Notes under the pieces: model-generated
Seen by the model: the letters and a program-made list of their open reading frames with translations, nothing else
Databases searched by the model: none
What the model was told of the DNA's origin: nothing
NCBI GenBank assembly: GCA_026770705.1
Contig: JANJGN010000034.1
Location: 2,852,001-2,916,000 of the forward strand
Reading direction: 5' to 3'
Origin: Isurus oxyrinchus
Taxonomy: Eukaryota
DNA length: 64,000 nt
Shown: positions 3,812 through 62,795 of the stretch, one piece after another
Layout: each line of letters starts with the position of its first letter
Numbering within the stretch: the stretch's first letter is position 1
Position numbers and translations under genes: made by a program

Positions 3812-3847
3812 CTTCGTCTTGCAGGGTCCGTTTCAGATTCTCTAGTT
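3812..3847 (-). CDS. Microexon 17 (36 nt): ELENLKRTLQDE
   Basis: ttttcttccctcgttttcatag|AA CTA GAG AAT CTG AAA CGG ACC CTG CAA GAC GAA G|gtcaat; strong acceptor, weak donor. Confidence 0.85.
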
Positions 3848-3924
3848 CTATGAAAACGAGGGAAGAAAATATGACAATCATTCAAATGTTAATATTTGAA
3901 AACTTAGAAGAATCAAAGATAGGA

Positions 3925-4075
3925 AGAAAAACAGAGAGGAAAAACGAGAAATAAGGAAGGTGGGAAAGGAAGAAAGGAAGGAAGGAGGGAAGGGAGGAAG
4001 GAAGGAAAGAAGGAAGGAAGGGAGAGAGGAAGGGTGGAAGGGAGGCATGGAAGAAAGATGGAAGGAAGGAAGGCC
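3925..4075 (+). repeat. (GGAA)n-like purine microsatellite
   Basis: Imperfect ggaa/ggga tandem run. Confidence 0.9.
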
Positions 4076-5422
4076 TGTCTTCCTAGCATGAAAAAATAGA
4101 CATTTGCTGTGACTGTTGAGCGATGCATTCCATGCAAACGATTTAAAATAAGTTTAAACAAAACGAGCACGTTTCAAAGCGACCCCAAGCAGCCTGCATG
4201 TCTGTTAAGGTGCCCAGATGAATCGGAGACACGTGCAAAGAGGGAATTGAATCCCCCATTTCTTGCTCTGGCCCACGTCAAATATTATCATCAATGCACG
4301 TGAAATGAAGGGCAGCTTTGCGCAATTTTATTAAACCATGTCACCTCCTCACCTTTGTCTTTCTTGATGATCTTTTGGTCTGGTGGGAACATGAATCGGG
4401 TGGATAATATTATTCACAAAAATATCTTCACCTGTCGTCATTGTAGTGGGCGCATGTGATTTGGCCAATATTGCATTGGCCAGCTCTCATATGCACTTCC
4501 CCATTTCTGTTGGCATTGTCTAGATTGAAACCACATTTGGAATACCAAATAAAACATGGCCATACTATTCCTAAGCAAACCACCCATACAGATGATGAGA
4601 CATTAAGACAAAGCGTTCCAAGTCCACCAATTATGCAGAAAATGGTTCGGTGAAGTGTCGCCTTCTATATAATGCTTCCTTCTCGATATGCAAATTCATT
4701 CACTTCAGCATTAAAGACAAATTATTAACTCTATATTATTCAGCCTGTTACCTCAGATCTATAAAATATTCAATTGCACATTTAAATTAGCCATGTTCTG
4801 ATGGAGTTCAAATTAGAATGGAGCCGGAACGCAAATCATCATGGCTCACTTTGGAACCTGTTGTCCTACAAGAACAAGTGTCAGCTTTGTTGGCATGACG
4901 GAAATTATATTAACACCGCCCAATCATTTTGAAGTTTGGCCCCTAATAATTTAATCTGTGATGCCAGAAAAAAGACTGCCTCCTCTGTTTCCATCTGTTT
5001 GTTTCGAGCATCCGAGGGATAACTCGTGGAGACAGGTCACCTATACAGAGGGGAAGCTACTTCCCAATTTGAATCGATGGCTCCAAATGATAGTTGTTCA
5101 ATTTCCTCTGCTCACCCATTTCATTGATGCTGTCTTTTAGTTTTCCTATGGCTAAAAAGGAGATAAATAAATAGATACATATGTAGATAAGTTATTTAAA
5201 ATACATATTTTTTATATTTTAGACATATTGCCAATGAGTTCAAACAGAGAGTTTAGACTTCATAGACCTTTTGTAGAATATCAATGACTTAGAGAGGGAT
5301 CAGGAGAAAGTCCACAATAATGGGACATGTTTCGGGGATCTTCAATTTGCTTGAAACACTGGATAGGCGGGATCTGTCTGCCTCGAGTGGAGAAACTTGC
5401 GGGGGAACTTAACAGCGATATT

Positions 5423-6380
5423 GGCCTGAATCTTCCGATATGAGGAGCAGCGAATTATTTAACTAAAGCTCCTGTAGCTCCGAGGCGCGCACATGTGGGA
5501 GGTTTAAACTTCTGATTCAGGGTTTCACCCTGCCTGGGCACTGCACAACTGCCCGTGGCATTTGGATCAGCCCGTTTAAACGATGGAGAATTAGATGTAT
5601 TCACTGTTCTTTCTCCCCCGACGATTTACCTCAGGCTTTCTCAGGAGCGAAGTAACTTGGCAATATTAGAACCACGGCATTGCTCAACACCGCCCAGTAA
5701 TGCTCAATGTGCTTCCGACAATGTTCACTCGCCTTTAAGGAATATCAACCCGCAACCCACACACCCTCTCCCCCTAGCAATGCCCAGGCTCTCCCACTTG
5801 ACTAGATAATCTGTAACCCCCAGCCCCCACCCCGGATAACTCTGAATCTCCTCTCTACATTGAACTGAGAGGCGGCAGAGCGGAACTGAATAATGTTGCC
5901 GGGGGGGGGAGGGGCGGGGGGGGGGAGGGGCGGTGGTGGGGGCGGGGAGGTGAACGAGGGTTTCAACCTTTCAGGGGGCTGTGAGGGGTTGAACATATCA
6001 GCTGGCAAGCAGGAGGTGCACCTTGCTGGCAGTTGAGAGAGTGGGGGGTGGGGGGTGTTGAATGCCGCCGGGGATAATGGCAATGCAGTTGGCTGTCAGG
6101 TGATGGAATGGAGAAGGATTTTGTGAGTGAGATTAGTCGGAGGGAGGTTGTTCGGTACTGGGTATGTCCGCTCCATTTAGAGACAGTGGAAGGCAATTAA
6201 CGGAAATCAGGCCTTCAATTGCCTGGCTGGACTATGTCTCGCCACTAGGACTCCAGAATCTGCTCATAGCTGGACCTCTGCTGGAGGGAAGACCGAAAGG
6301 TGTGAGGACTGCAATCCAAAATAGTATGTGGGCAGTTTAACTCGGAAATCCATTCCTCTGCCGTTGGGTAGATATTTGCC
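5423..6380. mobile_element. Putative non-autonomous DNA transposon (PIF/Harbinger-like)
   Basis: Degenerate terminal inverted repeats GGCCTGAATCTTCC / GGTAGATATTTGCC flanked by ATT on both sides; GC-rich interior. Confidence 0.45.
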
Positions 6381-7589
6381 ATTGAAAATCATGAAATGTT
6401 ATGTTAGATTAATTAAGGCATTTTTTTCCCCACTTGCAAAATGAATTATAACCAGTAGAGGGAAACTGATGGCCACAAGACATGTGAGGAGATTTTTCTT
6501 TAAGCAGCGACTTATTTTGATCTTGGATTCACCGCTAATATGACTGGTGAAATAAATGCAACCTTCGCTTTCAAAATTGAATCCCTTAAAACTTGCAGGT
6601 GAGAATAATTGCAAGGTTCCAGGAAAGGCCTGGTATTGGGGCTAATGTGATAACTCTTAGAATGACCTGGCACGCCATTATATGTCAAACGGCTCCCTTC
6701 TCTCTTGTAAGATACCATTGTTCGATGAATAAAAGAAGGGGTTGGCAGGAATGTTGGTCTTTGCACAGAAGCTGAAGACCCTGGGTTAATATTATTTAAA
6801 TTTCAAAGGGACCCGATTAAAGCAATAAAAGACTGCGGGGGACTCAAAATAAAAAGCAAAACTTGTTAAATGTCTTGATATTATTTTTGCTTTGTTTTAT
6901 GGATTTCGGCATTTCAAGAAGGTTCAGAGCGTGACATGAGGCGTCGGGCATGTCAGTAATTCGTTTCAAATTTAAAAGCTAACTGAGGGAAGGAACGGTT
7001 AAAGAAGCAAAACTGCCCAGTTTTGCAAATGATTTTATGGTCCGTGGTGCATATTTCAGCCTATGATGTCACCATGTTAAAGTTGGCAAAATGTATGCGA
7101 ATGGACACTGATGATTCTGCTACAAATTCATCTCAATAAGGGATAAACGGTGGCAAGTTGTTAGTTGACCCACATGAGGCGTCCTCAATAACTGGACCCA
7201 TCCAAGTTAATGGCACTGGACATTAGCTGGAAATATAAGGAGTGAACAATGGGATATCTCTTGATTTGCATGGCCACTGAAGGCAGATTTGAACCTTATT
7301 ACATCTTTGAACAGTGTTCTCAAGTCCATGCACGATCGCTCACAACTGCAAGAATCCGTGCAAGGAGCCCATGTACTTGTTTGCCATCAAGATCGAGACA
7401 CTGTGATTCCTCAGCAGCAACTTTGTTCCTCCATTTGCGGCCCAATTTTCCAAGCTTCCATTATTTATCCCCCCGCTCTACCCCTGAACTCGCATAATTT
7501 TCTAGCTTCTTTCCAGTGTCCCATCATATGCTATCTTTGCGCTTATCTTTTCTGTAGGACCCGCCTCCTGTTCCCTCGATTCTCGTTCT

Positions 7590-9030
7590 ACTAAGCTGCT
7601 GTCATTAAACCTCCCCTCCTTGCCCTCATGTTAACTGTATTTCTAAATATTTCTGACTCTTCAAGTGTTATCCCAATTTCCTTCGAATTTGCTCTCGATA
7701 TCGTCTTTCTGAAAAAAAAATCCTTGACCTCCGTGGTTGTCTCAAACTTGCACCCCAGCTCCCACGTTCCTTTTTATCTCCAAAGACCAAAAACATCTCG
7801 CCTCGCAAATCTGTTCCCACCTTTCCTGGAGTTCAATGTTCGTTTCTCTCCAATGAGATTCCACTGCCAAAGCTGGAATAAACGTACCATTCTGAAACTC
7901 ACAAACAACATATTATGTTTTTGTGGCAAAGCTAAACCTAGCCTCTTTGTACTTCACCCCTGCCTGGAGCCTTTTCCACAGTTGACCATAACAATCCCTT
8001 TTAGCAACTCTCCACCTTTGTCCATCAGGATGTGCCGACTCTCACGTGTTTCCACTCTTATCTATCTACTTGTTGTCAGGAAGTCACTTGCAAAGTCATG
8101 GCATTGTGCTCCTGCACCATTACCTCTGGTCTCCACAAATGACCTACCCATGGCCACCGCCTATTTGTTTATCGTAACCCACTTGCTACTTACTGGTGAA
8201 ACCTATCGTAGGCACAGTGCTGGTTTCCATATTTTTTGGCGAAATACTTTGGTTAACTCACTCCTCCCTCTGTCACTTCTTCCATTGTTATTAAATCATC
8301 AGACTGATTTTCTGACAACCAATGCTGGGTGAGCAGAAACGCCCTCCAATTCCAAACTGGCAGGCCGTAAGCCATTGGAGCGGTTCCCAGTCCAATCTAA
8401 ATTTCCACCCCTTAGCGTGGAAACAGCCTGAGATTAAGTCAGTCCCTTGAAAACCTTTGTGTCACATTTGAGGCAGCCTTCCGACCTCGTATTTATCCCA
8501 TCACTAATACCGCATATTTCCCTCCTCAAATTGCCCGGATTCACTCCAGTTCAGTTCACCTGCTCCGTTTGCCAATAAGGCATCACTGTTGTCTGTTGAC
8601 TCGGCTCCCCCAGCACACTGATGCCTGGCCTTCCACACCCTACCACCCATAAACTTGAAGTCATTGAAAACTCCGATTACTGCATCGTAACTCACATCAA
8701 GCCAAGTCCGCTCATCACCCCTGTGGTTACTGACCTACATTCAGCCTGCGTCCAAATGCTCATGTTTGTGTTCGAGTCTCTTTATGGACTCCCATGTAAC
8801 CATCTCTAATCCCATCTAGCTCCGCAGTCCTCTTAGATACCTAATTCTGGCTTGTTATCCATCCTTAAGTTTAATCTCTCTTATTGCAGGCAGTGCCTTG
8901 TGGATTGCCGATCTCAAGCTCTGCAGTTAAGTTCTTACAACCTTCCGCTTCACTAATTCACCTTCATTACTTAACGTGCTCTTTAAAACCAATATTTTTG
9001 ATGAAGCTTTTCATCACCTGACCTAATCAC
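7590..9030 (+). mobile_element. Decayed L2-clade LINE (RT region and 3' part)
   Basis: ORF 7628..8332 keeps traces of L2 motifs (NLHPSSHVPF resembling NYRPISNLPF; LKLTNNIL resembling LKVTNDIL). Confidence 0.65.
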
Positions 9031-9520
9031 TCCAGGAAAATAAAAGGACCTATACATAAAAATCTACATTTGCTGAGGTGGCTGAATGGAAAATATTGAG
9101 GAAAGCAATTGTGAGAAGTCTCCGGTTCTTTTAAATGATGCCCAGAGCGAGCTTTGCAGGTCCAGCTATGGTGACAGAACGGGAAGCGATTTAGAGTCTC
9201 ATCCAGGAGATCCAAAACCGCGTCATGAAATTACCACACTGGGAAGATTAGGAAAGATTTTGCACTCAACACGTTGCAGTGAGAAATAACACACTGTCAT
9301 CCAATTCGGATGGAATGTTGGCACGATCGAGCCACTAAGATATAGATCTGTGCACAGTGCATCTTTCTTAGTTACTACACAAGTGGACGTGTCTCACCCA
9401 GCTGTTATACCACCCACCTTGTTTTTTTCCAGCGCCCTCAGTCTAACAGGACATCATAGCCCAATATTGTTTTCCCTCAGTCTGCTGAGTCTTACCCTCA
9501 GTTAGATTCTTATCACTTAC

Positions 9521-9547
9521 CTGTGTCCTTTCCCACCAATCTTTGTT
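9521..9547 (-). CDS. Microexon 16 (27 nt): EQRLVGKDT
   Basis: cttactttaaatcttttag|AA CAA AGA TTG GTG GGA AAG GAC ACA G|gtaagt. Confidence 0.92.
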
Positions 9548-9851
9548 CTAAAAGATTTAAAGTAAGCATTATTTGAAATGGAAGGGAAGGTTTTACAGCA
9601 GAGAAAATAAATAGCAGATTGGCATTTACGTGATTTCTCTGTTCCGCCCAATCATCAGCATCACCGATTTCGACAGGAATGAATAACACTTCTGGCATAA
9701 AATGGCGACCAGAACACCAGCCACGGACAGTTTCTGTTGCATTTCCAAACCCTTGAGTTTTATATCATATTATAATATGGCAGGTATTAAGTGCTGGGCT
9801 GATCAAATCCCAAAGGGGAACTTGGCAAAGCTGCCATAAAGATTTGCAAAT

Positions 9852-10728
9852 TGTAATTCTTTACGAGAAGTTATGTGCAATCAATTCAGGAGCAAAGAGT
9901 CCGCCACCACTCCTGGAGATTTTTAATATTAACTTATAACATTTATTAATAAAAGAAAAGAAAGCATAAACACATGAGAATATGTTTACACAGTTAAATT
10001 TGGTCTTACAATATTTCCCAAAATATTTCTACTTAACTAGACTCCCAAGTAAACAACATTTTCCAGGAAACAGTCCGAATAGCGTCTAAATCTATAAACA
10101 TTGACAAGGTAACCACTGTTGCTGTAAGGGAGGTATTTCACCGCTTCCTTCTTCCCTTCACTTGACAATGGAATTCGAAGGCTTTTAAGAAAACCTTGCT
10201 TTTTGGAGCAAGCAAGCACTTCTCTGGGTTGGCAGAAGCTGCGACTTCACAGTGCACTCATCAAGATCTCACTTGGCCACTCACCATACAGCTGTCAATA
10301 ATTTCTTAAATATATTTTTTCCCTTGTGATCTTTAAAACCCATTGTTTTAAACTTTCTTCTGAAGCTACATTTCGCAGAGTATAACACAAATATTTCATG
10401 TTGCCATTAGGGCTAGCACTTGCAGGAAAAATAAACTGAATAGCTTTGTCCTAATTATTAGCAATTTTGACTGTTGCCAAACGTCAGGTCACATCTCTTT
10501 GAAATTTAACTTCCACTAACCTCCTAATGCAAATTACCATTTATATTATTGGGATCACATCATAACTTGACTATCAGCATTTGAAAATGTGTGTTTTCAC
10601 TCCTAATCCCTTTGATGATTTAAATCTTGGCGCCTGGCTAGTCACACACACAACACACACAGCTCGCAGAATCCTGCTTCAGTACCACACAGTTATATCG
10701 GGGAAAATAACGTGAAATTTCCTTTACA
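9852..10728. mobile_element. Possible solo LTR
   Basis: TGTAA...TTACA termini about 880 bp apart, AATAAA near one end; no clean target-site duplication. Confidence 0.35.
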
Positions 10729-11799
10729 ATGATTTTTCTTTTGCTGTAATGTCAACTGCAACAATTAATTACTGCGCAGATTCTGAGATCAGTGTAAAGA
10801 CAGATAATTCTGGGGCATTTTATGTGCAGTGGAGAGAGAAAGTAGGTTAAACATTTTATCAGAAATGCAGTACAACACTCCTTCAGTAGTTCTCTAGAGT
10901 GTCAACCTAGGTTTGCTTTATCGAAGCTCTGGATTGCAACTTGAGTCTATGATCAAGTCATTGCAGATTAAACTTACAAATTGAGCTGCGGCTGGCGGTT
11001 TATATTCTAAATTCATTGTATTAAATATAATTACTTAGCTGTGTTGGTCGGATGCAAACTAGAATCTCTGGGCCATTAGTGCAGTCAGATAACTGCTATG
11101 GTATTATACCCTAACAAGTTTAAGGAATTCCTCGCACCACTGAGAACGTGAGGCTGAGATTTCTCAGCAGACAGGGCGTGAGTGGAAAGGACCAATGTTC
11201 AATTCCAGGTTTTTCCAGTTCTCTTCCTAAATCTGTTTTCTATTTGCTCGATTCTCACGGTGCAGGAGAGCACTCAATTTTTACAATAGCGTGACGACGT
11301 TCCATGATTCATGTTCCAGTCCCTTCGAGGTGCATGATCAAACTACACTACTTCCATCATTTGCAATACAGGTTTCAGGTAATATTCATGTTACTTGGTG
11401 AGTGATGGAGGGATCTAAACTGAGACTCCCAACATAGTTGTCCATATCTCCTTATAGTTTTGGGGAATTTAAATTCAATTTATTAAATACATATGGAATA
11501 AAAAAAAACTAGCATCAATAAGGATGGTGATAAAATTAGGGTTTACATTAACATGAATTGCAGCCCGAGAGAATACTACTTCTATAGAGCACTTAGCTTG
11601 AGGAATGAAATGGGTGAGGGAATTCACGGTACTGAGGGAAAAGGTACAGTGCTCTAACCTTTTACAAAGCAAAGTGTAGTCTGAATGAGGGAGGAGGAGA
11701 CAGCGAGATCTAAGTGCGGAAACCCATTGAATACAGATGGTTAGCAATTGGACGTAGATCTTGATTTCAGGTTGTCACTGACAGGATTGTGAAAAGCGA

Positions 11800-13530
11800 T
11801 CCTGATTTGATACAAAGCCCGGTGAACATAAACATAAAGTGAGAAAGCGAGCCTTCAGTGAAATCTCCAACAACAGCAAAGGAAAGAAGAAACTACATCT
11901 GAAAAACACCTCAACAAGGGAAGGAGCCGAATGTGAGTAGCCAGTAACTGTTTCCAGTTAATTGTTTGGAGGATAATGGAATGGAAGGGAACCTAAATCC
12001 CGCGCAATGCACATTCTTCACCACGTGGGAAATCCTGAGAAGTACTCCTTGCTGGACAGATACATGTGGAGGAAATGCTGCCAGCAGGAGCAGCTCATGC
12101 TCTTGTTTTTGGACCTTGAGAGGTAGTTACAGCTATTACATTCGTGAAGCTTAGAGGTTCGTAGAAGACAAGTTTCTGGAAGTGGTCACTGCACACTTGG
12201 GAAATTGGCTGGCAGAGGCGGAATTATTAACTTCCAGAACGTCAGGCAGGTTGGGACGGGACCTGAGAGGTGCATGTCCAGCAGGTGCTCATTTCTAAAT
12301 ACTGGTGAACATGATGGTTCCTCGGAGGGATGCAGGCACAGCCAGGTTCAATGCAACAGAGATGACTCAGCTGCAAGGGGGCTGGGTGGGTGGAAGAAAG
12401 CAGAGTGTAACAACAACAGTGGTAATCGATTCTGTAGTAAGGGGATTAGATACACCCTTCTCCAGCCAGAGGCGTGATTCCAAGATTCTATGTTTCCTCC
12501 CTGGTGCAGGCTAAATGATATTCCTTAACATCTTCAGTACATTTTCGGGGCTAGAGTGAACCTTTTGAAAGTTGGTCCGTAAAGACAGAGTTGAACACCA
12601 GGGCGAGGAATGCTGTTCGAAAATCAGAGTTCAGTAAACTAGCAGGGACACTGAAATACTGGGCCCCAAAGTTGGTGATCGCAGGATGACTGCTCGTGTC
12701 AAATACTTGTAGGTACAGAACAACGACGAGTGAGCTACTGAACACCTCGCAGGGCAGATGGTGCTGGAGTGAGGCCGTTAGGTTGTTGATGCACTGGGGT
12801 CGCTTCTGGGGTAGTTAGGCCCTGTAGAAGATGGATGCGATGCACTTCAAAAGACCGGTACCATTATCTTGGAAGGTTTTGTTGCTAGGGCAACTGGCAA
12901 GGGTTCACATCAGCTTGGCTGTGGCAGGACATGAGGAAGAACATTTTTACGCAGAGGGTAGTGAGTGTCTGGAATTCGCTGCCCAAGTTGGTGGTAGAGG
13001 CAGAAACTTTAAACTCCTCTAAAAAGTACCTGGATCTGCACCTAAAGTGCTGTAAGCTGAACGGTTATGGGCCGGGTACAGGAAGGTTGGATGAGAAAGG
13101 GCTCCTGGGTTTCCTTGAGCTGGCATGGACAAGCTGGGCCAAAAGTATATGGGAATGATAAATGAGGTACATTTCAATGCACAAAATCTAGAGGATCGGG
13201 CAGATGTGCTGAGAGAAGAGATTAGAGCGTGGAAGTACGATTTTATAGCTAAAACTGAGTCATGCATGAAAGGAGTCCAGGAGTGATAAATAAGCCTCCC
13301 TGGTTGCTCGGCTTTCAGGTGAGAAACCCAATAACAACAACAACAAAAACAACAAAGAAAAGCAAACAACTGTGCAACACCACTGGCGGATTTGCACTAC
13401 CCTGATATTGACTTGGATAAAAGCAGCGTGAACAAATTAGAGGGAGTAACATTCTTACACTGATTTAAGGATTTTGGCTTGTTTGATTAGCCATAAGGCA
13501 CAATGTCAGCAAGGGAGGAGGAGTTTCTGT
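11800..13530 (+). mobile_element. CR1 5' region (ORF1 zinc finger and SGNH esterase relic, start of ORF2 endonuclease), interrupted by a CR1 3' fragment at about 12930-13142
   Basis: VVIDSVVRGLDTPF...CFLPGA resembles the CR1 ORF1 GDS esterase motif; YFNAQ and WKYDFIAKTES endonuclease traces; IFTQRVVSVWNSLP insert. Confidence 0.75.
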
Positions 13531-13559
13531 ACTTTTAACAACTAATATATCAGTATTCC

Positions 13560-14760: not shown

Positions 14761-14863
14761 AGGATATTCAACACAGTTTAAAAATAAACAGCCATGGAGA
14801 AACCAACGCATGAGACCATTCTTTGAACTTGTAAGGAAAGTGGAAGGAATTTATTGTACTCAC

Positions 14864-14899
14864 CACACTCAAATACAAGATTTTGTTGATTTTCTAATT
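14864..14899 (-). CDS. Microexon 15 (36 nt): ELENQQNLVFEC
   Basis: cattattttttccacag|AA TTA GAA AAT CAA CAA AAT CTT GTA TTT GAG TGT G|gtgagt. Confidence 0.92.
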
Positions 14900-38345: not shown

Positions 38346-38349
38346 AAAA

Positions 38350-50609: not shown

Positions 50610-50724
50610 CATTAGTAACGTTTATTAATAGTGTTATTGTTTATTGGCAAATGTAAAGGTTTATTATCATTAGTAATGTTTATCAGCATTGCTAAGGTTT
50701 ATTTATAGTGGTAAATATTATTGG
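50610..50724 (+). repeat. 19-bp AT-rich minisatellite, 6 imperfect copies
   Basis: cattagtaacgtttattaa / tagtgttattgtttattgg / caaatgtaaaggtttattat / cattagtaatgtttatcag / cattgctaaggtttattta / tagtggtaaatattattgg. Confidence 0.75.
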
Positions 50725-51082: not shown

Positions 51083-51100
51083 CTTTGCTCAACTTCTTCT
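51083..51100 (-). CDS. Microexon 6 (18 nt, shortened 27-nt type): EKKLSK
   Basis: cgtttttttatcaatattag|AG AAG AAG TTG AGC AAA G|gtaagg; shares AAGTTGAGC with exon 14 and fills the short-exon slot. Confidence 0.8.
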
Positions 51101-53166: not shown

Positions 53167-53202
53167 CTGTATCCAGCAAAAGGTCTGAGATTTTTTCTAT
53201 TT
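53167..53202 (-). CDS. Microexon 5 (36 nt): EIEKISDLLLDT
   Basis: ctgtttactttctacag|AA ATA GAA AAA ATC TCA GAC CTT TTG CTG GAT ACA G|gtaatg. Confidence 0.92.
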
Positions 53203-54233
53203 CTGTAGAAAGTAAACAGGAGCTATTGAAAAACAACTGTTTATGACTGATACGCTCTTGGCGCTATCAGCTAAGTTAAGGGGAAAGTGGTAATGGGAGA
53301 CCAAGAGATGGGGATAATGTGTAAATGCGAGAATATGAAGTTATTTGGGTTAAATGGGACAAGACACGAGGGCAAATTGGCGGCATTGCATCATCATCCC
53401 GTTCTATGCATCGCCCTACATGAAATTCTGTTTATTAACTGGTTGATGTGAATATGTGGGTGCCCTATTAATGCACAGGAAGGAATTACGGTTGGTCTGC
53501 GCCCCCGTACCTGTCCACTTTCACAGTGAACAAGTCCAGAAAGGGCGCACCTGTGGCCAATGGACCAAACCGTGCAATATAAGAGGTTTCTATATTGCAG
53601 AACAAGAAAGCTGGGGCATGGCAGATAGCTGATTGAAGCCAATGGCATTGGACCTGTGAATCGTATAGCTTTCCAATATGTGGGGTTCCCTGGTCCATTG
53701 TCTCGGTCTGCTCTAGACCGATATTGACTTCCTTGATCAGTTGCTAACTCCAAAATTGCTGCATCTTTCGGAAATCACAAAGCACATTGAACTAGCGAGC
53801 AATCAGACACAGGGGCTCTGGTGTTGTTAACTTGGCCCCTGCAGACAGGAAAAGGAGGGGAAGCAAAATTTGAATGCAAATTTTATCGCATAAATAATCA
53901 GCATTCTCAATTATTACCAATGCGAGCCATGAGAAAAAAAGTCGATATCTAAAACCATCACGGTACAAAAGGCACAACAACACAAATTCAAACTGGGGCG
54001 AAACTAAGTACAGCAGATCATCCGACACTGGTTTTAAAAGTAAATCTTCTGGAATGCCACTGTGAAAGCAAATAATTTAAAACTGAACTGGACACAAGAG
54101 ATCAGACAGTGTCTGCTGTCTCCCCCACATAACCTGATTTCTACCACGTGAAAATGCACTATGAAAGGTTTCTTGATGGCAACGAAAAAAACCTATAAAG
54201 AATAGTTGTACCATCAAACTGCCCCATTCTTAC

Positions 54234-54260
54234 CGAGAGCACTTTTGTTCAACTTTTGCT
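54234..54260 (-). CDS. Microexon 4 (27 nt): EQKLNKSAL
   Basis: attgttctttaatcag|AG CAA AAG TTG AAC AAA AGT GCT CTC G|gtaaga. Confidence 0.88.
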
Positions 54261-54379
54261 CTGATTAAAGAACAATGGTGATTATCAATCCCGTTGAAAA
54301 GAGCGAAAAAATAGTACCAAAGATTAACATTGCATAGATAAAAGAACAGAAATGTAACTCAGTGACAATAATGTGAAAT

Positions 54380-55030
54380 TATGAGGGCTGGTTGAGCAAT
54401 GGAAAATTAGGAGTGGTTTGATTAGTTGTTTAGAAATTAAAGGATTTTCATTAATGTAGATTAGAGAGAAATTATATCCTCATTTGGGGGTCCCGATTTA
54501 AGGGTAATTCCACGAAAAAACTTTTTGCGCAAATTAGAATGCAAATTGTTGATGACATTTCCGTTCAAACTTTAGTCACTGGGATGGGTGTTTGTATCTC
54601 TTGCAATGGTATTAAGGGCATTGGAAGAAAGGCAACCAAATTGAGTTAAGAACACAGGAACAAAGCAATTAAGAGCATGAATCAGTTATTCAGCCCTGTG
54701 AGCTCCCTCCTCTATTCAATGAGATCGTGCCTGATCTTCTACTTGAATACCATTTTCCTACACTCCCCCCTTACTCCTTGACGTTTTTAATTTTCAGAAA
54801 TCTCCAGATCTCAGCCTTGAATTAACCCAACAACTGAGCTTGCACAACCCTATGGGGCAGATAATTGCAAAGATTCATCACCTTCCTAGTGTGGAGTTTC
54901 CTCCTCATCTCATTCCGACATGACCCGCCCCTTATTTAAAGAAAGTTAATGTGCAGCTCAGCCCTGATCGAATTGACTGGTTGGGACAAGCTGTAATGCC
55001 TTTATGAGAAGTTACCGGTTTGCTTTATCA
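54380..55030 (+). mobile_element. CR1 3' end containing a nested minus-strand CR1 3' fragment (about 54650-54943)
   Basis: Plus-strand 3' UTR breaks at gagttaag and resumes at aagttaatgtgcagctcagcc; AGTTAA on both sides. Confidence 0.7.
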
Positions 55031-55409
55031 CCACTCCTTGCACCAGAAACATGCCATGTACATCTAGGTATCCAAATAAGTGAACTCTGAACCTGGCACC
55101 ACGTGGACAGGCAGATTCAAATCTTGCCGAGTAATTTGACATAGAATGAAATAAATTTTACGTTATGCCAATTTCGTGAATATAGTGTGAATGCCCAGTG
55201 TCTGATCTCTCCACTGGGCCAAAGCGTAATTGGCGGGGGTGCGGGTGGGATGGGGGGTGGTTGGTGGTGTTGAGAAGTTAAATTTAGGCAATTATGTTGA
55301 GTAAAATAACTTATCGGTGACAACATGTAATGCAAATGTTAGGTAGTAATTATATGTGCTGTTGCTGAGCTCTATGTCAACTTACATAGACCGTATTATA
55401 TATTTTTGG

Positions 55410-55748
55410 CATTTATTCCTTGATGGGAAATGGGCAGCATGGTCCAGGCCAGCATTTGTTGCCGACCCCTAATTGCCCTTAAACGGAGTTCCTTTCTAGT
55501 CTATGTTGGAGGGCAGTCAACATTCAGCAACATTGCTGTGGGTCTGGAGTCACATGCATGTTCGACCAGCAAAACGGATTTCATTCCCTTAAGTACATTA
55601 GTGAGCAAGAAAGGTTGTTACGACATAGTCACGGTTATTGAGTCCAGCTTTATATTCCAGAACTTGTTAACTGAATTCAAAGTCCACCAGCATAAGGCTG
55701 GGTCTCTGGATTACTAGCCCAGTGACAAAACTTCAACGCCACAATCCC
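55410..55748 (-). mobile_element. tRNA-headed SINE sharing its 3' tail with the 50300 LINE family
   Basis: Tail similarity to 50300-50370; related decayed copies near 23060-23330 and 31330-31670. Confidence 0.6.
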
Positions 55749-55986
55749 CTCACCACCGCCCCCTCCCGCGCCCAGATATAGACTGCTTTGCATAGCTGTA
55801 CATTTCCGCAATGGGCCTGTTCCCCTGAATAGAATTGAAAACACGTAATTGACAAAAAAGTTGCTCGGTCCTGCTTTTGTGTGGTGAAGGGTACATATCT
55901 CCTGATATGACATGCTAAAACGTGAAGGCGTTCTTGCACTCAAACGGAGTTTCAAAATACACTTCAAAATGATGCCTTCTATTTAC

Positions 55987-56022
55987 CTGCATCTTGCACA
56001 CGCTGCTTCAGAGTTTCTATTT
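55987..56022 (-). CDS. Microexon 3 (36 nt): EIETLKQRVQDA
   Basis: cttttctttctctacag|AA ATA GAA ACT CTG AAG CAG CGT GTG CAA GAT GCA G|gtaaat. Confidence 0.92.
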
Positions 56023-57549
56023 CTGTAGAGAAAGAAAAGTGACAATTTGTTAGGATGGTGTGTGGATTATCAGTGAAGTCAAGAGTATAAACTAAACTAA
56101 GTGATCCCGCTAGCATTGACACAGGTGATTGAGCACGAGAAGCAGGAGAGATTGGCATGTCTAAGTAAGTCCACCTTATGAAAATAATGAAACATTGCAA
56201 GCACTGCTGAAAACTCCAGCGGACTGATCCCTGCAGAGAGCTGCATGACATCATGAGAATACATTAAGGGAATTCCGATTTCTGTGACAATAGCTAGAGG
56301 CGTCCATCCTCTCGCTGAGGCCTGTCCTACTAATTCCTTCATGGCTGTTTATCCTTTAGCACAACTTCCACGCAATTTCTCCATGCAGGTTCATAGCCTC
56401 CACTGACAATCTAAGACTGATTTCAGATCTGTCACTGACAAAGCCGAAGCAACATCGTGAACTATTTGAGGGAGAATGTTCCTATTTTCCAATATAATTT
56501 TTGGGAAAATGCGCTCCTGTTTCTATCCCTGTGTGGCTGGTCTATAATATGTCTACTGTGTTCGTTTGGATTTGATTTTCGACAAGAAATGGTTCCTGTT
56601 GTTTGTTCCTAGACCCTTGAGGTAAAGCAAACATTAGATTTGCTCTTCCTGATGTTTCTTGTTCCTTAGTTATTTCATGATTTGTTCATTTGTGTTCCCA
56701 AAGTTTTGACCCTCGGAATTCTCGTCTTCAAAATCTGCCTGGTTCATGGATTCAGTGAGGAAACTGCAAACATTTGGAGGGAAACTTAAACGTCCAATGG
56801 AACCCGATTATCAGGGATCAGGTAAGTACAAGTTGGGAATCCTTTTCACACACCACACTATTTAACTTTGCATTGTTTTGGCAGTGCTCTCTTAAAGTGC
56901 CACCCCTTTAACAGGTGGCAATGCTGAACGGCATTCTTGCCTTCTGTGATGACACACTACTTGATGAAGAAAGAGATTTGAAAGATGGCGAAAGGCCTTC
57001 TATTTGGACAGCTGCAGTCAGTCTGGTGAAGGTCTTCCCCACCCCTCCTCCTCACCCACCCTCACCAAATGACTTTTCGATAGGGATTTCGAGGATTTCA
57101 ACACAGCGACTATTATGGACGGGCAATAAAGCTCCAAGAGTTTTCTGTGACTGAAACGGGAGGTGGTAGGTAATTGTTCTCCCATTTCATCTATTTGACA
57201 GGTCTTGAGCTGAGGGAACAGTATGAACAAAAGCGCATGAATAAAGTGTGATACTGTGTTTCAGAAGTGAACATGAAACTGTAATGAAGGGACTCTATAA
57301 TAAGCCACAAATCTACATTGCCCCATTACCCACCTGATAGAAAGATAAATTTAGAGAACAACGCCAGCAGAATGGAGGACGAATACTTTCAGTTGGTGAC
57401 TGTTACAATGAAGTCGCCAGACAACATTTAATCTCCAACATTGTAAACACTGGGAGGTGGGTGTGTGGGGACGGGGCACAGGAGAGGTGGAGGGAGGACC
57501 AGGGGGAGGATTATTTTAATCAGTCATTGAATTTGAGCGCTATTGCCAA

Positions 57550-58590
57550 AGCCAGAATTTTTACAACACAGAACGAGGCCATTTGTTCCATCGTGTCTGT
57601 GCCATCTCTCATTTGGACCAATTTATTTAGTGCCACTCTCCCACCTGCTCTCAATGACCTTGTAAATTATTATTTTTCAGATAACAATCTACTGATCTCT
57701 CCTCTTGAGCGTCTTGATTGGACCTACCTCCACCATAACCTCAGAGCATGTATCTTTTTTCTTTTATTCGTTCCGAGGATGTGGGTTGCCTAGAGAAGCA
57801 TTAACCTAATTGACCTTGGGGAAGTGTTGTTTTTCTGCCTTTGTTGCAGTCTGTGTGTTGTATGAACATCCACAGAGCTGCTAGGCAGGTAATTTCAGGT
57901 TTTAACTTAGCCACAAGTATGTAACGGCCATATCATTCACGTTAGGGTGGTGTGTCACTTGGAATGGAAATTGTACGTCTTCAAAAACAATTGCTGCCCT
58001 TGTTATTCTGGGTGGTAGTGGTCCAGGTTTTGTCAGATGTGGTCGAAGGAGTTGCAAACATTACTAACCACTCGCTGGATGAAAAAACTCCTCATGTTGC
58101 TGTTAAAAAAAATGCCTTTTAGCTAAAATTTGTGCTTTGTTGCTCACGTTCCTTCCATTAACGGGAAGATTTCTCACAGCCTACTCTTTCCAAACACTTT
58201 ATGTTTGGAATGCCTCTGTCAAATTTCCTCTCAATCTTACCTTGTCCACTCGAAATAGCCCAGATTTATCCACTCGATTTAGGTAACAAAATTTCATCAA
58301 ACTTGGGAAAATTCTCGTGAATCTTCTCTGCACTCTTTCAAATTCACTTACATGTTTTTTGAAGTGCGGCGTCCAGAAATTGATACAATCCTCCAGTTGA
58401 GACCATTTATATAAGATTTACTTAACTTCCTTGCTATTATTCTCTATGTCCCCATTAATATAGTCTATGATACTGCATGCATTAAATACTGCTCGTTCAA
58501 TGATTTATGCACGTATGCACCCATGTTCTTCCAACCAAATCGAATTTTCACTGAAACATCGCCAAGTTAGTTAAATACGATTTGCACATG
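57550..58590 (-). mobile_element. Decayed CR1 3' portion interrupted by a second-family LINE 3' end (about 57755-58050)
   Basis: Similarity to 395-937 and to 50300-50580. Confidence 0.6.
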
Positions 58591-58599
58591 GAAAAACAA

Positions 58600-60790
58600 A
58601 ATGGGCCAAGATATTAGCAAAAAAAAATGCAGTGCAACAATGTGAAAGATTACAAACGGTGTTCTATCTGGTGAAGGGAGATATATTCTGCTAAGCACTT
58701 ATTGGACTCTACAGGGGAAAAAAAAGACATAACAGAGCATTTGCGGTTTTGGAAGGAGGCAAGCATTCAGTACATATGGAGCAGAGGGATACATAAGACG
58801 AAAAGCTTAACAGAAAAGTTTAAAAAAAGGAGAAAGATGAAGAAACACAATTAAACTAAATTTCCAAGGAATGCAGGATGAAACAGTTAAATAATTTACA
58901 AGCACATCGGAAAAAAATTAAAGTTTCAGATAGGAGTAGAATTCATTACTAGATATATGACACAAAGCACAATTGACAATAGAGAGGTGGCAGAGAAAAA
59001 AGAAACTTCACTTCGGTGTTTACCAGAGAGATAGGACAAGTAGACATGTAACTGAATTGTGAGATAAGTAATACAAGAATGCATTTATAACAAACAGAAA
59101 GACATATTGCATAACGCAAATGAACACATGGGTGATAAAGTCCACGGTTCGGATAGATTGTATTCAGGTATTTTAAACCCCTCTAGTGAAGATGTAGCAA
59201 ATGCATCCCTACTCGTATGTAATGATACCTTAGAAAAAGATGCTGTGTCAGAGAACCGAGGAAACAACTACAATAGTTCCTAAAATAAACAACGGGAGAA
59301 AATATGTCCATGGATTTTTAGATCAGCAGCTTAAACACAGTCATAGGAATAATAATGAAATGATCGCTAAAACAGAGAACAGGAGAACATCTAGGAATGA
59401 GGGGTGTGATAATGAACAGCCAGCATGGATTTGAATGTTTTGAGGAGTCAATAGAGAAGGTTGACAGTCCTTGTGCAGTAAGCCAGTAGATATTATACCT
59501 CTGGATTTTCAAAAAAAGGACTTCGATATGGTGCCACATAATTACCTAATGGACAAGGTAAGAGACTGCAAAGCCATGCACAAGAGGCAGAATGGATTGT
59601 TAGCTACTTCAAAGACAAAAAAAACAGCTTGTGTTCAACGTGTTGGGTGTTCGGAATGATGACAGTGGAAAACCTTCATCCTTAGCGTTGGGACGACAAT
59701 TCCCCTTCATTTTATATCAAAAAATGGACTTCGGAATGAAAAACACAATCTCTAAATTCGTGGATGACCCCATTTGGAGGTACAAGGTCAATAGTGCGAA
59801 GGGCTGCAACACGTTTTAGGAGCACCCCATAAACATATAGAATGGGAAATAGTTGGCAAAATCAGTTGCACAAAAGATAAGTTAGATGTGTTACATTTTG
59901 TTAAAGGGAATCGAGAGGTCAATTATTACCTGACAATTGAAAGGTCACACATTTTTGATAATATCCCCATTGAGGGATAGTGGACAGAGTTATTGTCAAG
60001 CTGTTGGTTCGGGTTCAACATGCCCTGGAGTGAAATTGGACCTTGAATGTTGGAGTAAGATGCACGGTCGCCAAGTAGTGACCCACAATTCTTCTGATTA
60101 AGTCAAGGTGGGGAAGCGGATAAAGGGATCTCGGAGTCCAAAGCATCAACCACTGAATGTCTTTCCATGGATTAGGAAAGCCATAAAAAATGGAATACAA
60201 CAATCAGCATTATTTCGAGTAATGCATTTCAAAAGAGTGGAAGCGAATCTCAACCTCTGGTGAAATTCATTGGGCCGCACATGGCAAAATGTGCGCATTT
60301 CTGGTCGCCATAGGATAGAAAAACATATCAAGACAGCAGAGGGCAAAGATAATTTTAAAAAGTTGGTGCAAGGAATGCGTAGGAACACAATCTAGGAAAA
60401 CATTGGAATGCATAGAAAATAAAAGGTCGAACGGTGATTCAGTAAAAACATTTACAATTCTGACATATTTTGGTAGGTATAACACAGAAACAATGCTTCC
60501 TTTTGTGTGGTAAAGAATAGCTAGAGCCCATAAAGCCAAGATAGCAACAAAGACAACTCTAAGGGGATCCAGAAGAAACTTATTCTAAATAAATAATAAT
60601 AAAGCTATGGAGCAGGCTACCACAAGTAGTGATGGAAGTGTGTGGTATAGATACGTTCAAACGGAAATTAGACAAATACACAGAGGAAATTATTATGAAG
60701 TTGGTTATGCTTGCAAAATTAGGTCGAAAAATTGGCCGAAGGCTCGAGTGGAGCTGAAGCACCGCCATGGACTGTTTGGGACAAACGGTC
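58600..60790 (+). mobile_element. Long decayed CR1 ORF2 with 3' end
   Basis: VDIIPLDFQK..DMVPH, TISKFVDD motifs; 3' UTR near 60740-60790. Confidence 0.8.
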
Positions 60791-61430
60791 CTGGTTCGTC
60801 ACCATATATCCAAGTAATGCATTGTAATCCTATGGATGCAGTAGCAATACAATGTGGGAACATGATGCACACATCACTCAAAGCTGTGACGCCAGTTAAT
60901 AAGGACATTTACGTTTATATTGGTTATATAGAGAAGAGATTGCATAAAATTCGTGAAAGTTCAAACAAACGGGGCCCTTTTCTATAGAAAAGCACAGCCC
61001 AAAGTGTGACCCAAGGTAGGTTTTGGCAATCATTAACGCTTTGAATAGAAGAAGGAGTGGCACTGCTTTTCATTGTAAGGAAGACATCAATAAGAGACTG
61101 TCGACACTCGATAATCAGCATGAATTTAAATAGAGAACTCTAGGGAAACCCGTTTACTGAACGTGTGCTGAGTATATGAGATTTGAAAGTCAGTACAAAA
61201 AGGGGTGGTTGAAATAAAGAGTATTGATGCATTAACCGGGAGGCTAGCCATATGAATACAGACTAAACTGATAGCGTCATTTGAGGAAGTATGGGAAGAA
61301 CTTTGTGTGCATAGATGTCATCGCGAACTCGTTGTTCTCACTTTCCTGTTTCTATGATGTATGTTCCATATAATCCTATGTAATTGTACGCAAAACAGCT
61401 CACGATGGAAATGCAACGTTATATGTTTAC

Positions 61431-61457
61431 CTTTGATCTTTCCCTTCATACTATTTT
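61431..61457 (-). CDS. Microexon 2 (27 nt): ENSMKGKIK
   Basis: caaaatctctttcag|AA AAT AGT ATG AAG GGA AAG ATC AAA G|gtaaac. Confidence 0.88.
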
Positions 61458-61679
61458 CTGAAAGAGATTTTGTTACCATTAATGACAGGAACAGCAATAA
61501 GAGAAGGCAGGTAAGTGCAAAATGAAGAATTGACTTAAGATCAAGAATCAAAACACAATGGATTTTGTGGTGAAGGTAAAATAAGAGAGGAAAAAAAATA
61601 ACAAAAGTTAACATATTTAGATGAATTAGGGAAGACCACGAAGAATATGAAGGTAGGAGAGATGGGTAAGAACAAAAGG

Positions 61680-62360
61680 ATGATGAAAAGGAAGAACAGA
61701 AATCTATAGTGATTACATCGGAGGTGTTCAAGAGGCCAGAATTTGAAGATGACAGAGAGATTAATGTGCAGTTAAGGTGCAGGAAGTTATAGAAATAACC
61801 AGCGGGCGTGAAAGGATGTGACTGGAATTGGAAGCAAGGATGAACATATTCCACCAAGTTGTTGCAATGCTGGAAGCCTCTGTATATCAGCGAGTGCAGG
61901 GGTGATGGTCGGGAGCAATTGGTAGTAATTAAGTCACCAGCAGCAGCGTTTTGATGGCTTTGCACTGATGAAAGGAGGGTTGGTGGAAAGATCACAGCTC
62001 GCCCAGGAGAAGATTGGTATAATCAATTTCCTGGAGAGCAAAGACATTAAATGGATGAGGGTTTCATCAGAATGAGTTGAGGCAGGAGCACAGGAGAGTG
62101 GTGTCACAAAGGGGAGAGGCTGCATCAATACTCTGGGTGAAGACAGTTATGGAGTCGAAGCTGAGCTCCTGGTCAAACCTGACGCCTAGTTTTCAAAAGG
62201 CCCCGTGCAAGTGCATGAAGTTTTTCGGGAAAGGGATTGAATCCGGGACGAGGATGTGGGGAATGTTGAAAAGCAGAGCAAGTAACTTCAGTGGTCCGAA
62301 TAATTAGGCAGAGAAAATTTCTCATTGTCGGCAGAGTTGGTTGAATGACAATGCAAAGGC
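61680..62360 (-). mobile_element. Decayed L2 LINE
   Basis: Similar to the minus-strand L2 segments at 32900-33400 and 47850-48200. Confidence 0.5.
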
Positions 62361-62485
62361 AGTTACCTAATTTTATTAATTTAGTTTAATTGTTTAAACT
62401 CTAAAAGAGTTATAAAGGCAGTTATATTCGGAGTTCATCGTCCACCGGAGCTGGTTCCGGTTCAAACTCTTGATGCAACTGATTC

Positions 62486-62505
62486 TGTGTCACTAGGGGG
62501 CAGAT
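62486..62505 (+). promoter_or_regulatory. Candidate CTCF site
   Basis: TCACTAGGGGGCAG closely matches the CTCF core CCACYAGRKGGCRS. Confidence 0.45.
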
Positions 62506-62759
62506 TGCAGATGATTCTTGGGGAACTTCCTTAGTTACTGGGCTAGCACAGGAAGAGAAGCTGTTGAAGAAGATTTCAATGTGGGGAGGTCGAGATTCGC
62601 TTCTTGTCAATTTATTGAACTGAAGAAAATGTTACTATTTTCTCTCCCTTCTGCTTGCAACAGGATCACAATACACAGAGGAAAAGGCCAATAGAACTAC
62701 AGGGACCATAGCTATGTTATTTCCCGTATTGAAATACGTAATCAAGTTTTTCCACTGAC

Positions 62760-62795
62760 CTGCATCCTTAAGGACGAGTTTTAGATTTTCCAGCT
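62760..62795 (-). CDS. Microexon 1 in window (36 nt, phase 1-1) of coiled-coil repeat gene: (E)LENLKLVLKDA
   Basis: Minus strand ctccttgatttttcag|AG CTG GAA AAT CTA AAA CTC GTC CTT AAG GAT GCA G|gtcagt; same length, phase and heptad pattern as the other 36-nt exons. First residue depends on the upstream exon. Confidence 0.88.

Follow-up and report, generated by a model that had tools for sequence, protein, structure and literature searches.

A shark gene of some 722 kb that very probably encodes a long coiled-coil rod, from alternating 36- and 27-nt microexons, and a terminal B30.2 domain

Microexons in the window

The window, a stretch of 64,000 nt of contig JANJGN010000034.1 (C34) of Isurus oxyrinchus, contains 19 microexons on the minus strand (Table 1), all bounded by AG and GT and in phase 1-1, with lengths in transcription order of 36, 27, 36, 27, 36, 18, 36, 27, 36, 27, 36, 27, 36, 27, 36, 27, 36, 27 and 36 nt. 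A preliminary description of the same DNA had reported 17 such exons and a stop-free splice product of 531 nt; the exons and the absence of stops were confirmed, but one 27+36 pair had been overlooked, and the joined exons comprise 594 nt in one open frame of 197 aa, with no stops in the phase-1 frame versus 22 and 11 in the other two. The common phase and the alternation of 36 and 27 nt, with one 18-nt exception, likewise held for 19/19 exons; the probability that 10 and 9 items alternate perfectly by chance is 1e-5. The series of lengths that had been listed follows the minus strand from 5′ to 3′ and not ascending coordinates, as "genomic order" had implied. The hydrophobic heptad pattern that had been described was borne out, with hydrophobic residues at positions 2, 9 and 16 in all eight full repeats, at position 5 in five and at position 12 in six; in seven of the eight, Lys occupies position 19, the third d position.

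Table 1. Features of the window, numbered from its first nucleotide
Feature	Position	Strand	Basis
Whole window, read as introns and exons of one gene	1..64000 (C34:2,852,001-2,916,000)	-	Flanking-contig scans
36-nt microexon, type A, 12 codons, phase 1-1	62760..62795	-	Profile recovery; duplicate retains AG/GT
27-nt microexon, type B, 9 codons	61431..61457	-	Profile recovery; duplicate comparison
36-nt microexon	55987..56022	-	Profile recovery; duplicate comparison
27-nt microexon	54234..54260	-	Profile recovery; duplicate comparison
36-nt microexon	53167..53202	-	Profile recovery; duplicate comparison
18-nt microexon, shortened type B, heptad register broken by 3 residues	51083..51100	-	Duplicate likewise 18 nt with AG/GT
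36-nt microexon	48821..48856	-	Profile recovery; duplicate comparison
Approximate point at which both copies of the 72-kb intragenic tandem duplication meet	46690..46705	.	Self-BLAST
27-nt microexon	42879..42905	-	Profile recovery; duplicate comparison
36-nt microexon	34500..34535	-	Profile recovery; duplicate comparison
27-nt microexon	32419..32445	-	Profile recovery; duplicate comparison
36-nt microexon, weak acceptor	28930..28965	-	Profile score 10.5, the lowest; duplicate comparison
27-nt microexon	24507..24533	-	Profile recovery; duplicate comparison
36-nt microexon	22801..22836	-	Profile recovery; duplicate comparison
27-nt microexon	21364..21390	-	Profile recovery; duplicate comparison
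36-nt microexon	14864..14899	-	Profile recovery; duplicate comparison
27-nt microexon	9521..9547	-	Profile recovery; duplicate comparison
36-nt microexon	5116..5151	-	Profile recovery; duplicate comparison
27-nt microexon	4353..4379	-	Profile recovery; duplicate comparison
36-nt microexon	3812..3847	-	Profile recovery; duplicate comparison

Independent profiles, trained on 44 and 54 exons taken from neither the window nor either copy of the 72-kb duplication, recovered all 18 window exons of 36 or 27 nt at a score >10, all on the minus strand, with no matches at this score on the plus strand of the window and a mean of 0.2 matches (maximum 2) in 40 local shuffles. In two sequence runs that we guessed to be RNA (two of the eight listed), coverage of positions 48,700–56,200 consisted mainly of interspersed repeats, and no exon-joining piece was present among the matches listed. 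For the B30.2 exon (described below), the listed matches included no RNA run.

Extent of the gene and its terminal exon

The window is very probably the middle of a protein-coding gene of at least 722 kb, consisting of a coiled-coil rod and a terminal B30.2 domain, which on the minus strand of C34 runs from the first rod exon located (3,430,467, a minimum 5′ limit) to the stop codon of the B30.2 exon at 2,708,632. The array comprises 136 firm microexons (64 of 36 nt and 72 of 27 nt by profile search) and 27 less certain ones, several of which break the heptad register, giving 163 modelled exons and a likely number of ~140–160. Neighbouring exons alternate in 119 of 135 cases, which was reached by none of 100,000 permutations, and the 136 core exons form a single stop-free frame, with 50/50 B+A units free of stops. 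A generic exon scan, its scores partly trained on the array's own exons, yielded 164 candidates above 16 on the minus strand versus one on the plus strand; lengths of 27 and 36 nt dominated and a single candidate measured 21 nt. No profile matches were detected past either end of the array, over 56 kb downstream of the B30.2 exon and 43 kb upstream of the first rod exon, and C34 was read up to 3,586 kb and from 3,735 to 3,795 kb. If fully spliced, the gene would have ~160 exons, almost every one ≤36 nt long, and a coding density of ~0.7%.

The terminal exon (C34:2,709,152-2,708,632, minus strand) lies 143 kb beyond the window and encodes a PRY-SPRY/B30.2 domain at the C-terminus, as is typical of B30.2 proteins, with a match to the Pfam SPRY model (E 4.6e-15) and none to the Pfam PRY model. 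Its predicted fold resembles the B30.2 domains of BTN3A1 and TRIM7 (TM 0.73–0.78), and the nearest solved domain is that of BTN3A1 (118 bits vs 101 for TRIM7). According to excerpts of PMC7348870, H351 of the BTN3A1 domain senses phosphoantigen; the aligned residue is Thr or Ser in all seven of our own paralogues, which thus do not have the His351 of the BTN3A pocket. The proposal that the exons form a rod within a larger protein ending outside the window is therefore upheld, with a rod about eight times the window segment, and the suggested scan of the flanks for further 27- and 36-nt exons and a terminal domain led to the 722-kb array and to B30.2, one of the candidates named. The analogy with CD23 is not supported, and a C-type lectin end was rejected, the 3′ end being B30.2.

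Search for an N-terminal domain

Our own HMMs gave no match under E 0.05 in 994 kb for RING (held-out controls 34/34), B-box (30/30) or IgV (10/11), and a B-box pattern was absent from eight database members of the clade described below. Between 2.7 and 7.5 Mb of C34, no RING (PF15227) was found among the 150 of 580 candidates scored, and no butyrophilin IgC domain (PF22705) among 37 matches (110/110 candidates scored). Hydropathy analysis did not indicate a transmembrane (TM) segment in the rod model (19-residue maximum 0.61) or in family proteins (0.5–1.5), compared with 2.4–3.3 in shark butyrophilins; the skate model XP_055510696 is mildly hydrophobic at its start (1.48). The Ig-V and TM segments with which BG and butyrophilins begin, and which had been among the suggested terminal domains, were thus not found in the 994 kb or in the hydropathy of the rod. 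Splice-site, ATG and ORF scans of the 43-kb gap above the first rod exon revealed no recognisable domain. A candidate 33-nt hydrophobic exon (C34:3,440,871-3,440,839) has a strong donor and a poor acceptor, and translation could start at an ATG in the first rod exon or in an unrecognised exon farther upstream. When the 5′ regions of genes 1 and 2 were compared, the sole non-masked match was a LINE endonuclease remnant that we take to be CR1-like, and it was rejected.

The predicted protein probably has no RING, Ig or TM front end. It would have one if the gene encoded a membrane receptor of the butyrophilin or BG type whose cytoplasmic tail is extremely long and whose Ig and TM exons were missed upstream. 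They might, for example, lie past the upstream paralogue, and the B30.2 exon of that paralogue would in that case be an alternative last exon. The proximity to BTN3A1, a bat BTN3-like domain as sister in the tree (aLRT only 84.7) and the tiny split-codon exons of BG tails (excerpts of PMC5938342) are in line with such a receptor, which is nevertheless improbable given the negative IgV, IgC and TM searches within the scopes above and the separate orthologue that the upstream B30.2 has in S. canicula.

Paralogues and relatives

Five such genes of differing lengths, each spanning at least 0.27–0.95 Mb, occupy about 4.8 Mb of C34, and two more family members lie within a large TRIM/BTN cluster on contig C21. 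In the tree, our seven B30.2 domains and eight from databases group together in a single clade (support values of 1.0 and 100; stem ~1.0), the named members of which are all cartilaginous fish (Scyliorhinus, Cetorhinus, Narcine, Leucoraja and Callorhinchus), suggesting a gene family known so far solely from this group. Relatives in chondrichthyan RefSeq, assigned by B30.2 clade or rod similarity (XP_038671249, XP_055510696, XP_038668997, XP_069775384-90, XP_069775418-28, XP_042191566-68 and XP_078422387), have been named automatically as TRIM-, A33-, golgin- or trichohyalin-like; they are much shorter than the product of this gene, mostly 200–600 aa. A search for longer relatives, which reached 2,000 aa, gave no orthologue of the gene. 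Similarity between rod and family proteins is 24–29% over long matches, and the 21-mer profile detects just 0–4 units per protein. Full-looking relatives start straight in the coiled coil, as in S. canicula XP_038671249 (945 aa) and in an ORF of 586 aa carried by Logan contigs (1,977 and 3,402 nt) that are too short to be genomic. RefSeq isoforms of relatives are separated by clean deletions of 9, 9, 9, 6, 8, 8 and 11 residues. Folding the skate member from its sequence alone gave an uninformative model (pLDDT 45). No description of the family was found among the openly accessible papers listed.

The two members in the TRIM/BTN cluster, the TRIM39/58/69-like RefSeq names of members and the equal identity of the family to RING-bearing and Ig-bearing B30.2 domains (best 33.5% vs 33.3%) would agree with a TRIM-derived innate sensor or decoy without a RING. 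Its B30.2 would recognise a target of pathogen or host origin, and the rod would either pair with TRIMs that have a RING or span a lattice. We consider this improbable, since the names are based on B30.2 alone, RING and B-box were not found in the searches given above, a gene so long would presumably be induced slowly, and the coiled coil of TRIMs is a short antiparallel hairpin rather than a 200-nm rod.

Properties of the rod

The rod model of 1,416–1,640 aa (about 210–245 nm, ~200–230 heptads) is built from repeats of 21 residues, i.e. three heptads encoded by 9+12 codons, and is poor in Pro (0.2%) and rich in Lys and Glu, with a strict charge pattern. Over 50 units, the three a positions are occupied by Leu (35), Leu or Ile (27 and 18) and Leu (36), and the three d positions by Lys (45), Leu (33) and mixed residues; complementary g-e′ pairs combine Lys (20) with Asp (16) or Glu (12), and Glu (40) with Lys (29) or Arg (6). 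Compared with the antiparallel TRIM type, these residue counts, used here in place of a dimer model, favour the pattern of a parallel dimer. Lys in every third d position is unusual in a tight dimer. A Fourier test of the whole rod lacks a clear 3.5-residue peak, as expected because the register breaks dephase the sum.

Such a rod might instead self-assemble into filaments or a meshwork, as in tropomyosin, paramyosin or golgins, with the 21-residue charge pattern driving lateral packing and B30.2 serving as an anchor and not as a sensor. Its great length, composition and charge pattern, the five giant paralogues of unequal length, the golgin- or trichohyalin-like RefSeq names of rod pieces, and the generic coiled coils returned, below the recognition threshold, as protein atlas look-alikes of the Logan protein can all be read in this way. 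This structural role is rather unlikely, however, as the weak constraint and repeated block duplication described below fit a spacer better than a lattice of fixed stagger, and register breaks such as the 18-nt exons are tolerated.

Duplications and selection

Two internal duplications, of 72 and 34 kb, extended the array. The larger covers 10 repeat units, with copies at 2,826.7–2,898.7 and 2,898.7–2,972.8 kb of C34 that are 85–92% identical by self-BLAST. An assembly artefact was rejected, as the copies are 10–15% apart and DNA of a related organism holds both, two runs giving contigs ~3.5% and ~12% from the window. Across this duplication, 20/20 exons retain AG/GT and frame without an indel (chance about 3e-4). 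Exons differ at 37/621 positions versus 490/5033 in the flanks (~10% divergence), and nonsynonymous changes are below the flank rate (p 0.0014), indicating modest purifying selection on the exons. Constraint on the rod sequence is weak, since the duplicates have a dN/dS of 0.61, which is not significantly lower than 1 (Fisher p 0.18), and changes were no rarer at core a/d positions (6/49) than elsewhere (16/138).

This dN/dS, segments that resemble exons but contain in-frame stops (C34:2,768,930 and 3,343,736), and the short database models of relatives might suggest that just some of the array's exons are used, giving short or truncated products, with much of the rod a drifting by-product of duplication; such partial use is very unlikely in view of the splice sites and frame kept by all 20 duplicated pairs and of the stop-free frame of the 136 core exons. 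Since all exons have lengths divisible by three and share a single phase, rod length can be changed by exon-block duplication, and probably by exon skipping, with the frame intact.

Proposed role and comparison with known systems

We give about an even chance to a combined interpretation in which the gene encodes a cytoplasmic protein with rod and B30.2 head but no RING, B-box, Ig domain or membrane anchor. It would form a soluble parallel dimer, with two B30.2 heads at one end of a long spacer of variable length, comparable to a butyrophilin or BG tail without its ectodomain. As a tether or scaffold, it might keep whatever B30.2 binds a fixed distance away from the partner of the rod, possibly cytoskeleton or membrane-traffic machinery, by analogy with the soluble BG tail (zipper protein) and enterophilin. 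In its soluble form, the BG tail displaces tropomyosin and has effects on actin-myosin, according to excerpts of PMC5938342 and PMC8813856. A bolder and distinctly less probable proposal is an undescribed cartilaginous-fish family, older than the split of chimaeras and sharks, whose megabase-scale genes, composed almost entirely of frame-neutral 27/36-nt exons, would serve as adjustable molecular rulers: duplication of exons in evolution and their skipping in the cell would set the reach of B30.2 in steps of ~3 nm, up to ~250 nm, a third use of this domain beside TRIMs and butyrophilins. If so, a family spanning about 5 Mb of one contig would have been hidden from standard annotation. There are at least five very large genes here, and automatic annotation appears to divide their relatives between one TRIM-like piece at the 3′ end and others that are golgin-like. 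If fully spliced, the gene would be a natural test case for microexon splicing across long introns and for coiled-coil length evolution through exon-block duplication; it also adds a RING-less, Ig-less branch from cartilaginous fish to the butyrophilin/TRIM B30.2 story.

The analogy with BG and butyrophilins drawn in the preliminary description holds for a coiled coil from tiny exons and for B30.2, but not for the Ig-V/TM front end. Chicken BG and zipper protein likewise have a long coiled coil from many tiny split-codon exons, its length also varying by exon gain (excerpts of PMC5938342 and PMC8813856), but these excerpts give 21-nt heptad exons and about 27–38 repeats, instead of 36+27-nt pairs and ~140–160 exons, and BG has IgV and TM without B30.2, the reverse of what was found here. 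Butyrophilins share the order of heptads then B30.2 with the shark gene, but have IgV, IgC and TM and only few heptads before B30.2, against a far longer rod. PRY-SPRY TRIMs have a coiled coil, a 27-nt exon and a single B30.2 exon in common with it, and shark paralogues lie in the C21 TRIM cluster, but their N-terminal RING and B-box were not found in the 994 kb and the rod is many times longer. Guinea-pig enterophilins, which are cytoplasmic and combine an extended leucine zipper of up to ~45 heptads with B30.2 in the absence of RING or TM, have the architecture of the shark gene; enterophilin-1 binds SNX1 (excerpts of PMC13749957). With ~200–230 heptads in the shark rod and its B30.2 in a separate chondrichthyan clade, this likeness is probably convergent, which suggests that long rods with B30.2, or rods from tiny exons, arose more than once, in bird BG, rodent enterophilin and sharks.

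Microexons in the window

A splice-site scan combined with position profiles identified 19 minus-strand segments bounded by AG and GT, with lengths in strict alternation of 36 nt (12 codons) and 27 nt (9 codons) except for one 18-nt member. The preliminary description had counted 17 such exons (531 nt); the array itself was present, but one pair had been overlooked, and the spliced product is 594 nt long; its phase-1 frame is free of stops, as had been stated, versus 22 and 11 in the other two. A 27-nt and a 36-nt exon together form a unit of 21 residues (three heptads), and the hydrophobic pattern described earlier was found again, with positions 2, 9 and 16 each hydrophobic in 8/8 full repeats, position 5 in five and position 12 in six, while position 19 is Lys in 7/8. 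Profiles trained on 98 exons, none from the window or its duplicate, recovered 18/18 window exons of 36 or 27 nt at a score >10, with no match on the plus strand and 0.2 per shuffled sequence (40 shuffles), and the exon pattern is far beyond chance, as first proposed. The longest window ORFs lie within introns and look like retroelement reverse-transcriptase or endonuclease remnants, and two high-copy, SINE-like interspersed repeats attract most contigs of every sequencing run compared.

Extent and structure of the gene

The rod had been thought to belong to a larger protein, and the flanking sequence, read from the 4.98-Gb genome, bore this out: the array continues past both window edges, with a B30.2 exon at one end. 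Profile matching gave 136 exons (64 of 36 nt and 72 of 27 nt), in which the two lengths alternate in 119/135 neighbouring exons, with none of 100,000 permutations as good. A generic symmetric-exon scan (score >16) yielded 164 candidates on the minus strand versus one on the plus strand; its extra candidates were 12–36 nt long, and 27 of 30 rows were retained, the exclusions being two shorter same-acceptor alternatives and one low 39-nt row. The resulting gene model has 163 microexons (4,920 nt; median intron length 3.3 kb), spans 721,836 bp and encodes a predicted rod of 1,640 aa (1,416 aa from the core exons alone), 210–245 nm long at 0.1485 nm per residue. At its 3′ end, 27-nt exons precede a terminal exon of 172 further codons and a stop, with a single AATAAA/ATTAAA signal 858 nt downstream. 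The terminal exon matches Pfam SPRY (E 4.6e-15), and its predicted fold (pLDDT 81) matches the B30.2 domains of BTN3A1 and TRIM7. Two exon-like segments carry in-frame stops, and are either decayed exons or stop exons that would yield rods without B30.2; P0186, a protein from Logan contigs (assembled database sequences), likewise has no B30.2 at its end. Low-complexity and satellite sequence lies below the B30.2 exon.

Coordinates of features on contig JANJGN010000034.1 (C34) and another contig of the same genome (C21); gene 1 is the window's gene, gene 2 its upstream paralogue
Feature	Position	Strand	Remark
Window microexons	window 62,795 to 3,812	-	19 segments
Window ORFs	window 1161-1928, 16266-18006, 26443-26955	+	
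SINE-like repeats	window 50,297-50,470; 55,446-55,700		
Profile matches, gene 1	C34:3,430,467 to 2,715,125	-	
Terminal (B30.2) exon, gene 1	C34:2,709,152	-	
Stop-bearing segments	C34:2,768,930-2,768,956; 3,343,736-3,343,771		27 nt; 36 nt
Satellite array	C34:2,667,600-2,699,200		25-bp unit; 398 copies in one part (L040) alone
CT-rich low-complexity tract	C34 2,653-2,665 kb		ahead of satellite array
72-kb duplication, junction	near window 46,698		10 repeat units
34-kb duplication	C34 3,163-3,232 kb		
Hydrophobic candidate exon, gene 1	C34:3,440,839-3,440,871	-	33 nt
Hydrophobic candidate exon, gene 2	near C34:3,792,603	-	24 nt
36/27 array, gene 2	reaching at least C34:3,774,914		
Five top B30.2 matches	C34 2.71, 3.47, 4.82, 6.40, 7.50 Mb	-, -, +, +, +	
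Next two B30.2 matches	C21 89.72, 91.35 Mb	+, +	
27-nt pattern matches	C34 2.75 to 7.39 Mb		73 matches
Runs of 27-nt exons	C34 5.89-6.17 Mb; 7.01-7.15 Mb		spacing ~27-30 kb; ~7 kb
Near-identical B30.2 exons	C34:6,395,830; 7,496,459		
B30.2/TRIM/butyrophilin cluster	C21:82-118 Mb		

Rod geometry and possible function

Across 50 units of nine plus twelve residues, Leu/Ile occupies the a positions (hydrophobic in 48, 48 and 49 units), whereas Lys (45), Leu (33) and a mixture of small residues occupy the three d positions. Two heptads out of three have flanking g-e′ pairs of opposite charge. The pattern agrees with established coiled-coil rules for a parallel, in-register dimer, which would have a loose seam once per 21 residues. 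Pairing of the chains in this way would place two B30.2 domains side by side at one end of the rod, and the protein could act as a cytoplasmic tether or scaffold, its reach set by exon number, a reading that we favour at slightly better than even confidence. A self-assembling structural protein ranks behind the tether or scaffold as rather unlikely. The ligand of the B30.2 domain is probably a protein, since the residue aligned to His351 of BTN3A1, described in PMC7348870 as key to phosphoantigen sensing, is Thr or Ser in 7/7 paralogues of this genome.

Duplication, selection and splicing

Self-comparison revealed a 72-kb tandem duplication inside the gene (85–92% identity) and a second, 34-kb duplication (86% identity). 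In DNA runs from a related organism (two of them), the matching positions are each covered by contigs diverging by ~3.5% and ~12% from the window, and the 72-kb duplication is therefore real and older than that split. AG and GT were intact, and indels absent, in the duplicates of 20/20 exons examined (chance ~3e-4 at the flank rate), and exons differed at 37/621 sites versus 490/5,033 in flanks. Between the copies, dN is 0.058 and dS is 0.095. Nonsynonymous sites changed at a lower rate than the flanks (p 0.0014), but dN/dS is 0.61 and not significantly <1 (p 0.18), and changes were equally frequent at core (6/49) and other positions (16/138). Splice sites and frame are maintained in a loosely constrained rod sequence. 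Regular runs of near-identical 27-nt exons in neighbouring paralogues suggest recent serial block duplications, and the near-identity of two further B30.2 exons, and of exons upstream of each, points to a whole-gene duplication of ~1 Mb.

Database relatives bear on splicing in the family. Logan contigs of 1,977 and 3,402 nt carry a 586-aa ORF with related repeats and must presumably be spliced, given the exon spacing in this gene. RefSeq isoforms rest on RNA alignments, and those of relatives show clean internal deletions of 9, 9, 9, 6, 8, 8 and 11 residues (seven events), in line with short-exon skipping. That the array is partly unused ranks behind the tether or scaffold and seems very improbable to us.

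Comparison with known systems

HMM searches of the 994 kb read around the gene found no RING, B-box or IgV at E <0.05, with held-out controls detected in 34/34, 30/30 and 10/11 cases, respectively, and the rod contains no hydrophobic segment (maximum hydropathy 0.61). In XP_038671249 (945 aa), the coiled coil runs from the first residue to the B30.2 domain. Enterophilins couple a long leucine zipper with B30.2. Enterophilin-1 is linked to SNX1 in a table row and reference of PMC13749957. RING and B-box are given as a requirement for TRIMs in PMC8813856, and the shark gene appears to differ from TRIMs in these features; a TRIM-type sensor without RING comes behind the tether or scaffold as an improbable reading. 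In chicken BG genes, IgV and a TM segment are followed by a long coiled-coil tail assembled from split-codon exons of 21 nt, without B30.2, and a soluble BG tail displaces tropomyosin (PMC5938342, PMC8813856). Butyrophilins, present in cartilaginous fish, combine IgV, IgC, TM, few heptads and B30.2 according to PMC12841164, and shark butyrophilins of ordinary type were among our protein-search matches. The shark gene appears to depart from both feature sets, and would work like a free butyrophilin/BG tail. A membrane receptor of BTN/BG type whose ectodomain was missed is likewise placed behind the tether or scaffold and is improbable; the best solved-structure match of the B30.2 domain is BTN3A1, and IgV is absent from the search results. 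Ancestry may lie with BTN or TRIM: BTN3A1 is the best solved match, the clade's identities to both groups are equal, and its tree sister, a bat BTN3-like domain, is weakly supported (aLRT 84.7).

Gene cluster and family

The five top B30.2 matches of the genome all lie on C34, and the next two inside a large TRIM/butyrophilin cluster on C21. Gene 2 has its own B30.2 exon, stop and 36/27 array. A pattern of 33 places, drawn from the 27-nt exon, matched 81 sites genome-wide versus 10 for the reversed control; 73 were on C34 (19 of them within the gene that supplied the pattern), each on the same strand as the next B30.2 exon. Three more precede the 91.35-Mb exon of C21, and five lie elsewhere. 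The four neighbouring genes span at least ~300, 266, 937 and 950 kb.

A tree of 179 B30.2 domains groups seven from this genome with eight from databases in a single clade (support 1.0, stem ~1.0), also recovered in a second tree of 86 domains (support 100). Named members are RefSeq models of catshark, basking shark, numbfish, skate and elephant shark, labelled TRIM39/58/69-like or A33-like, none with a RING, B-box or Ig pattern, and a C21 domain adjoins the basking-shark domain on short branches, which points to a shark genome. Among the 150 best representatives and the protein-search matches, the clade appears restricted to cartilaginous fish. In numbfish, the accessions of golgin-like rod models lie near that of a B30.2-bearing A33-like model, with a same-sized longest contig reported for both, which suggests that annotation splits these genes.

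A literature search, with subscription journals and supplements outside its scope, returned no account of this B30.2-rod family or of the 36+27 split. The gene observation is real; its building blocks are already known and, as far as we found, its scale, exon design and multi-megabase cluster are new.

The C21 cluster is very large: it holds matches to B30.2, to TRIM-type RING and to butyrophilin IgC, with well over 100 B30.2 exons among 150 scored. No first coding exon was found above the first rod exon of the gene, where a short hydrophobic candidate exon is located, as is one above that of gene 2; these could bear on a short hydrophobic N-terminus of the proteins.
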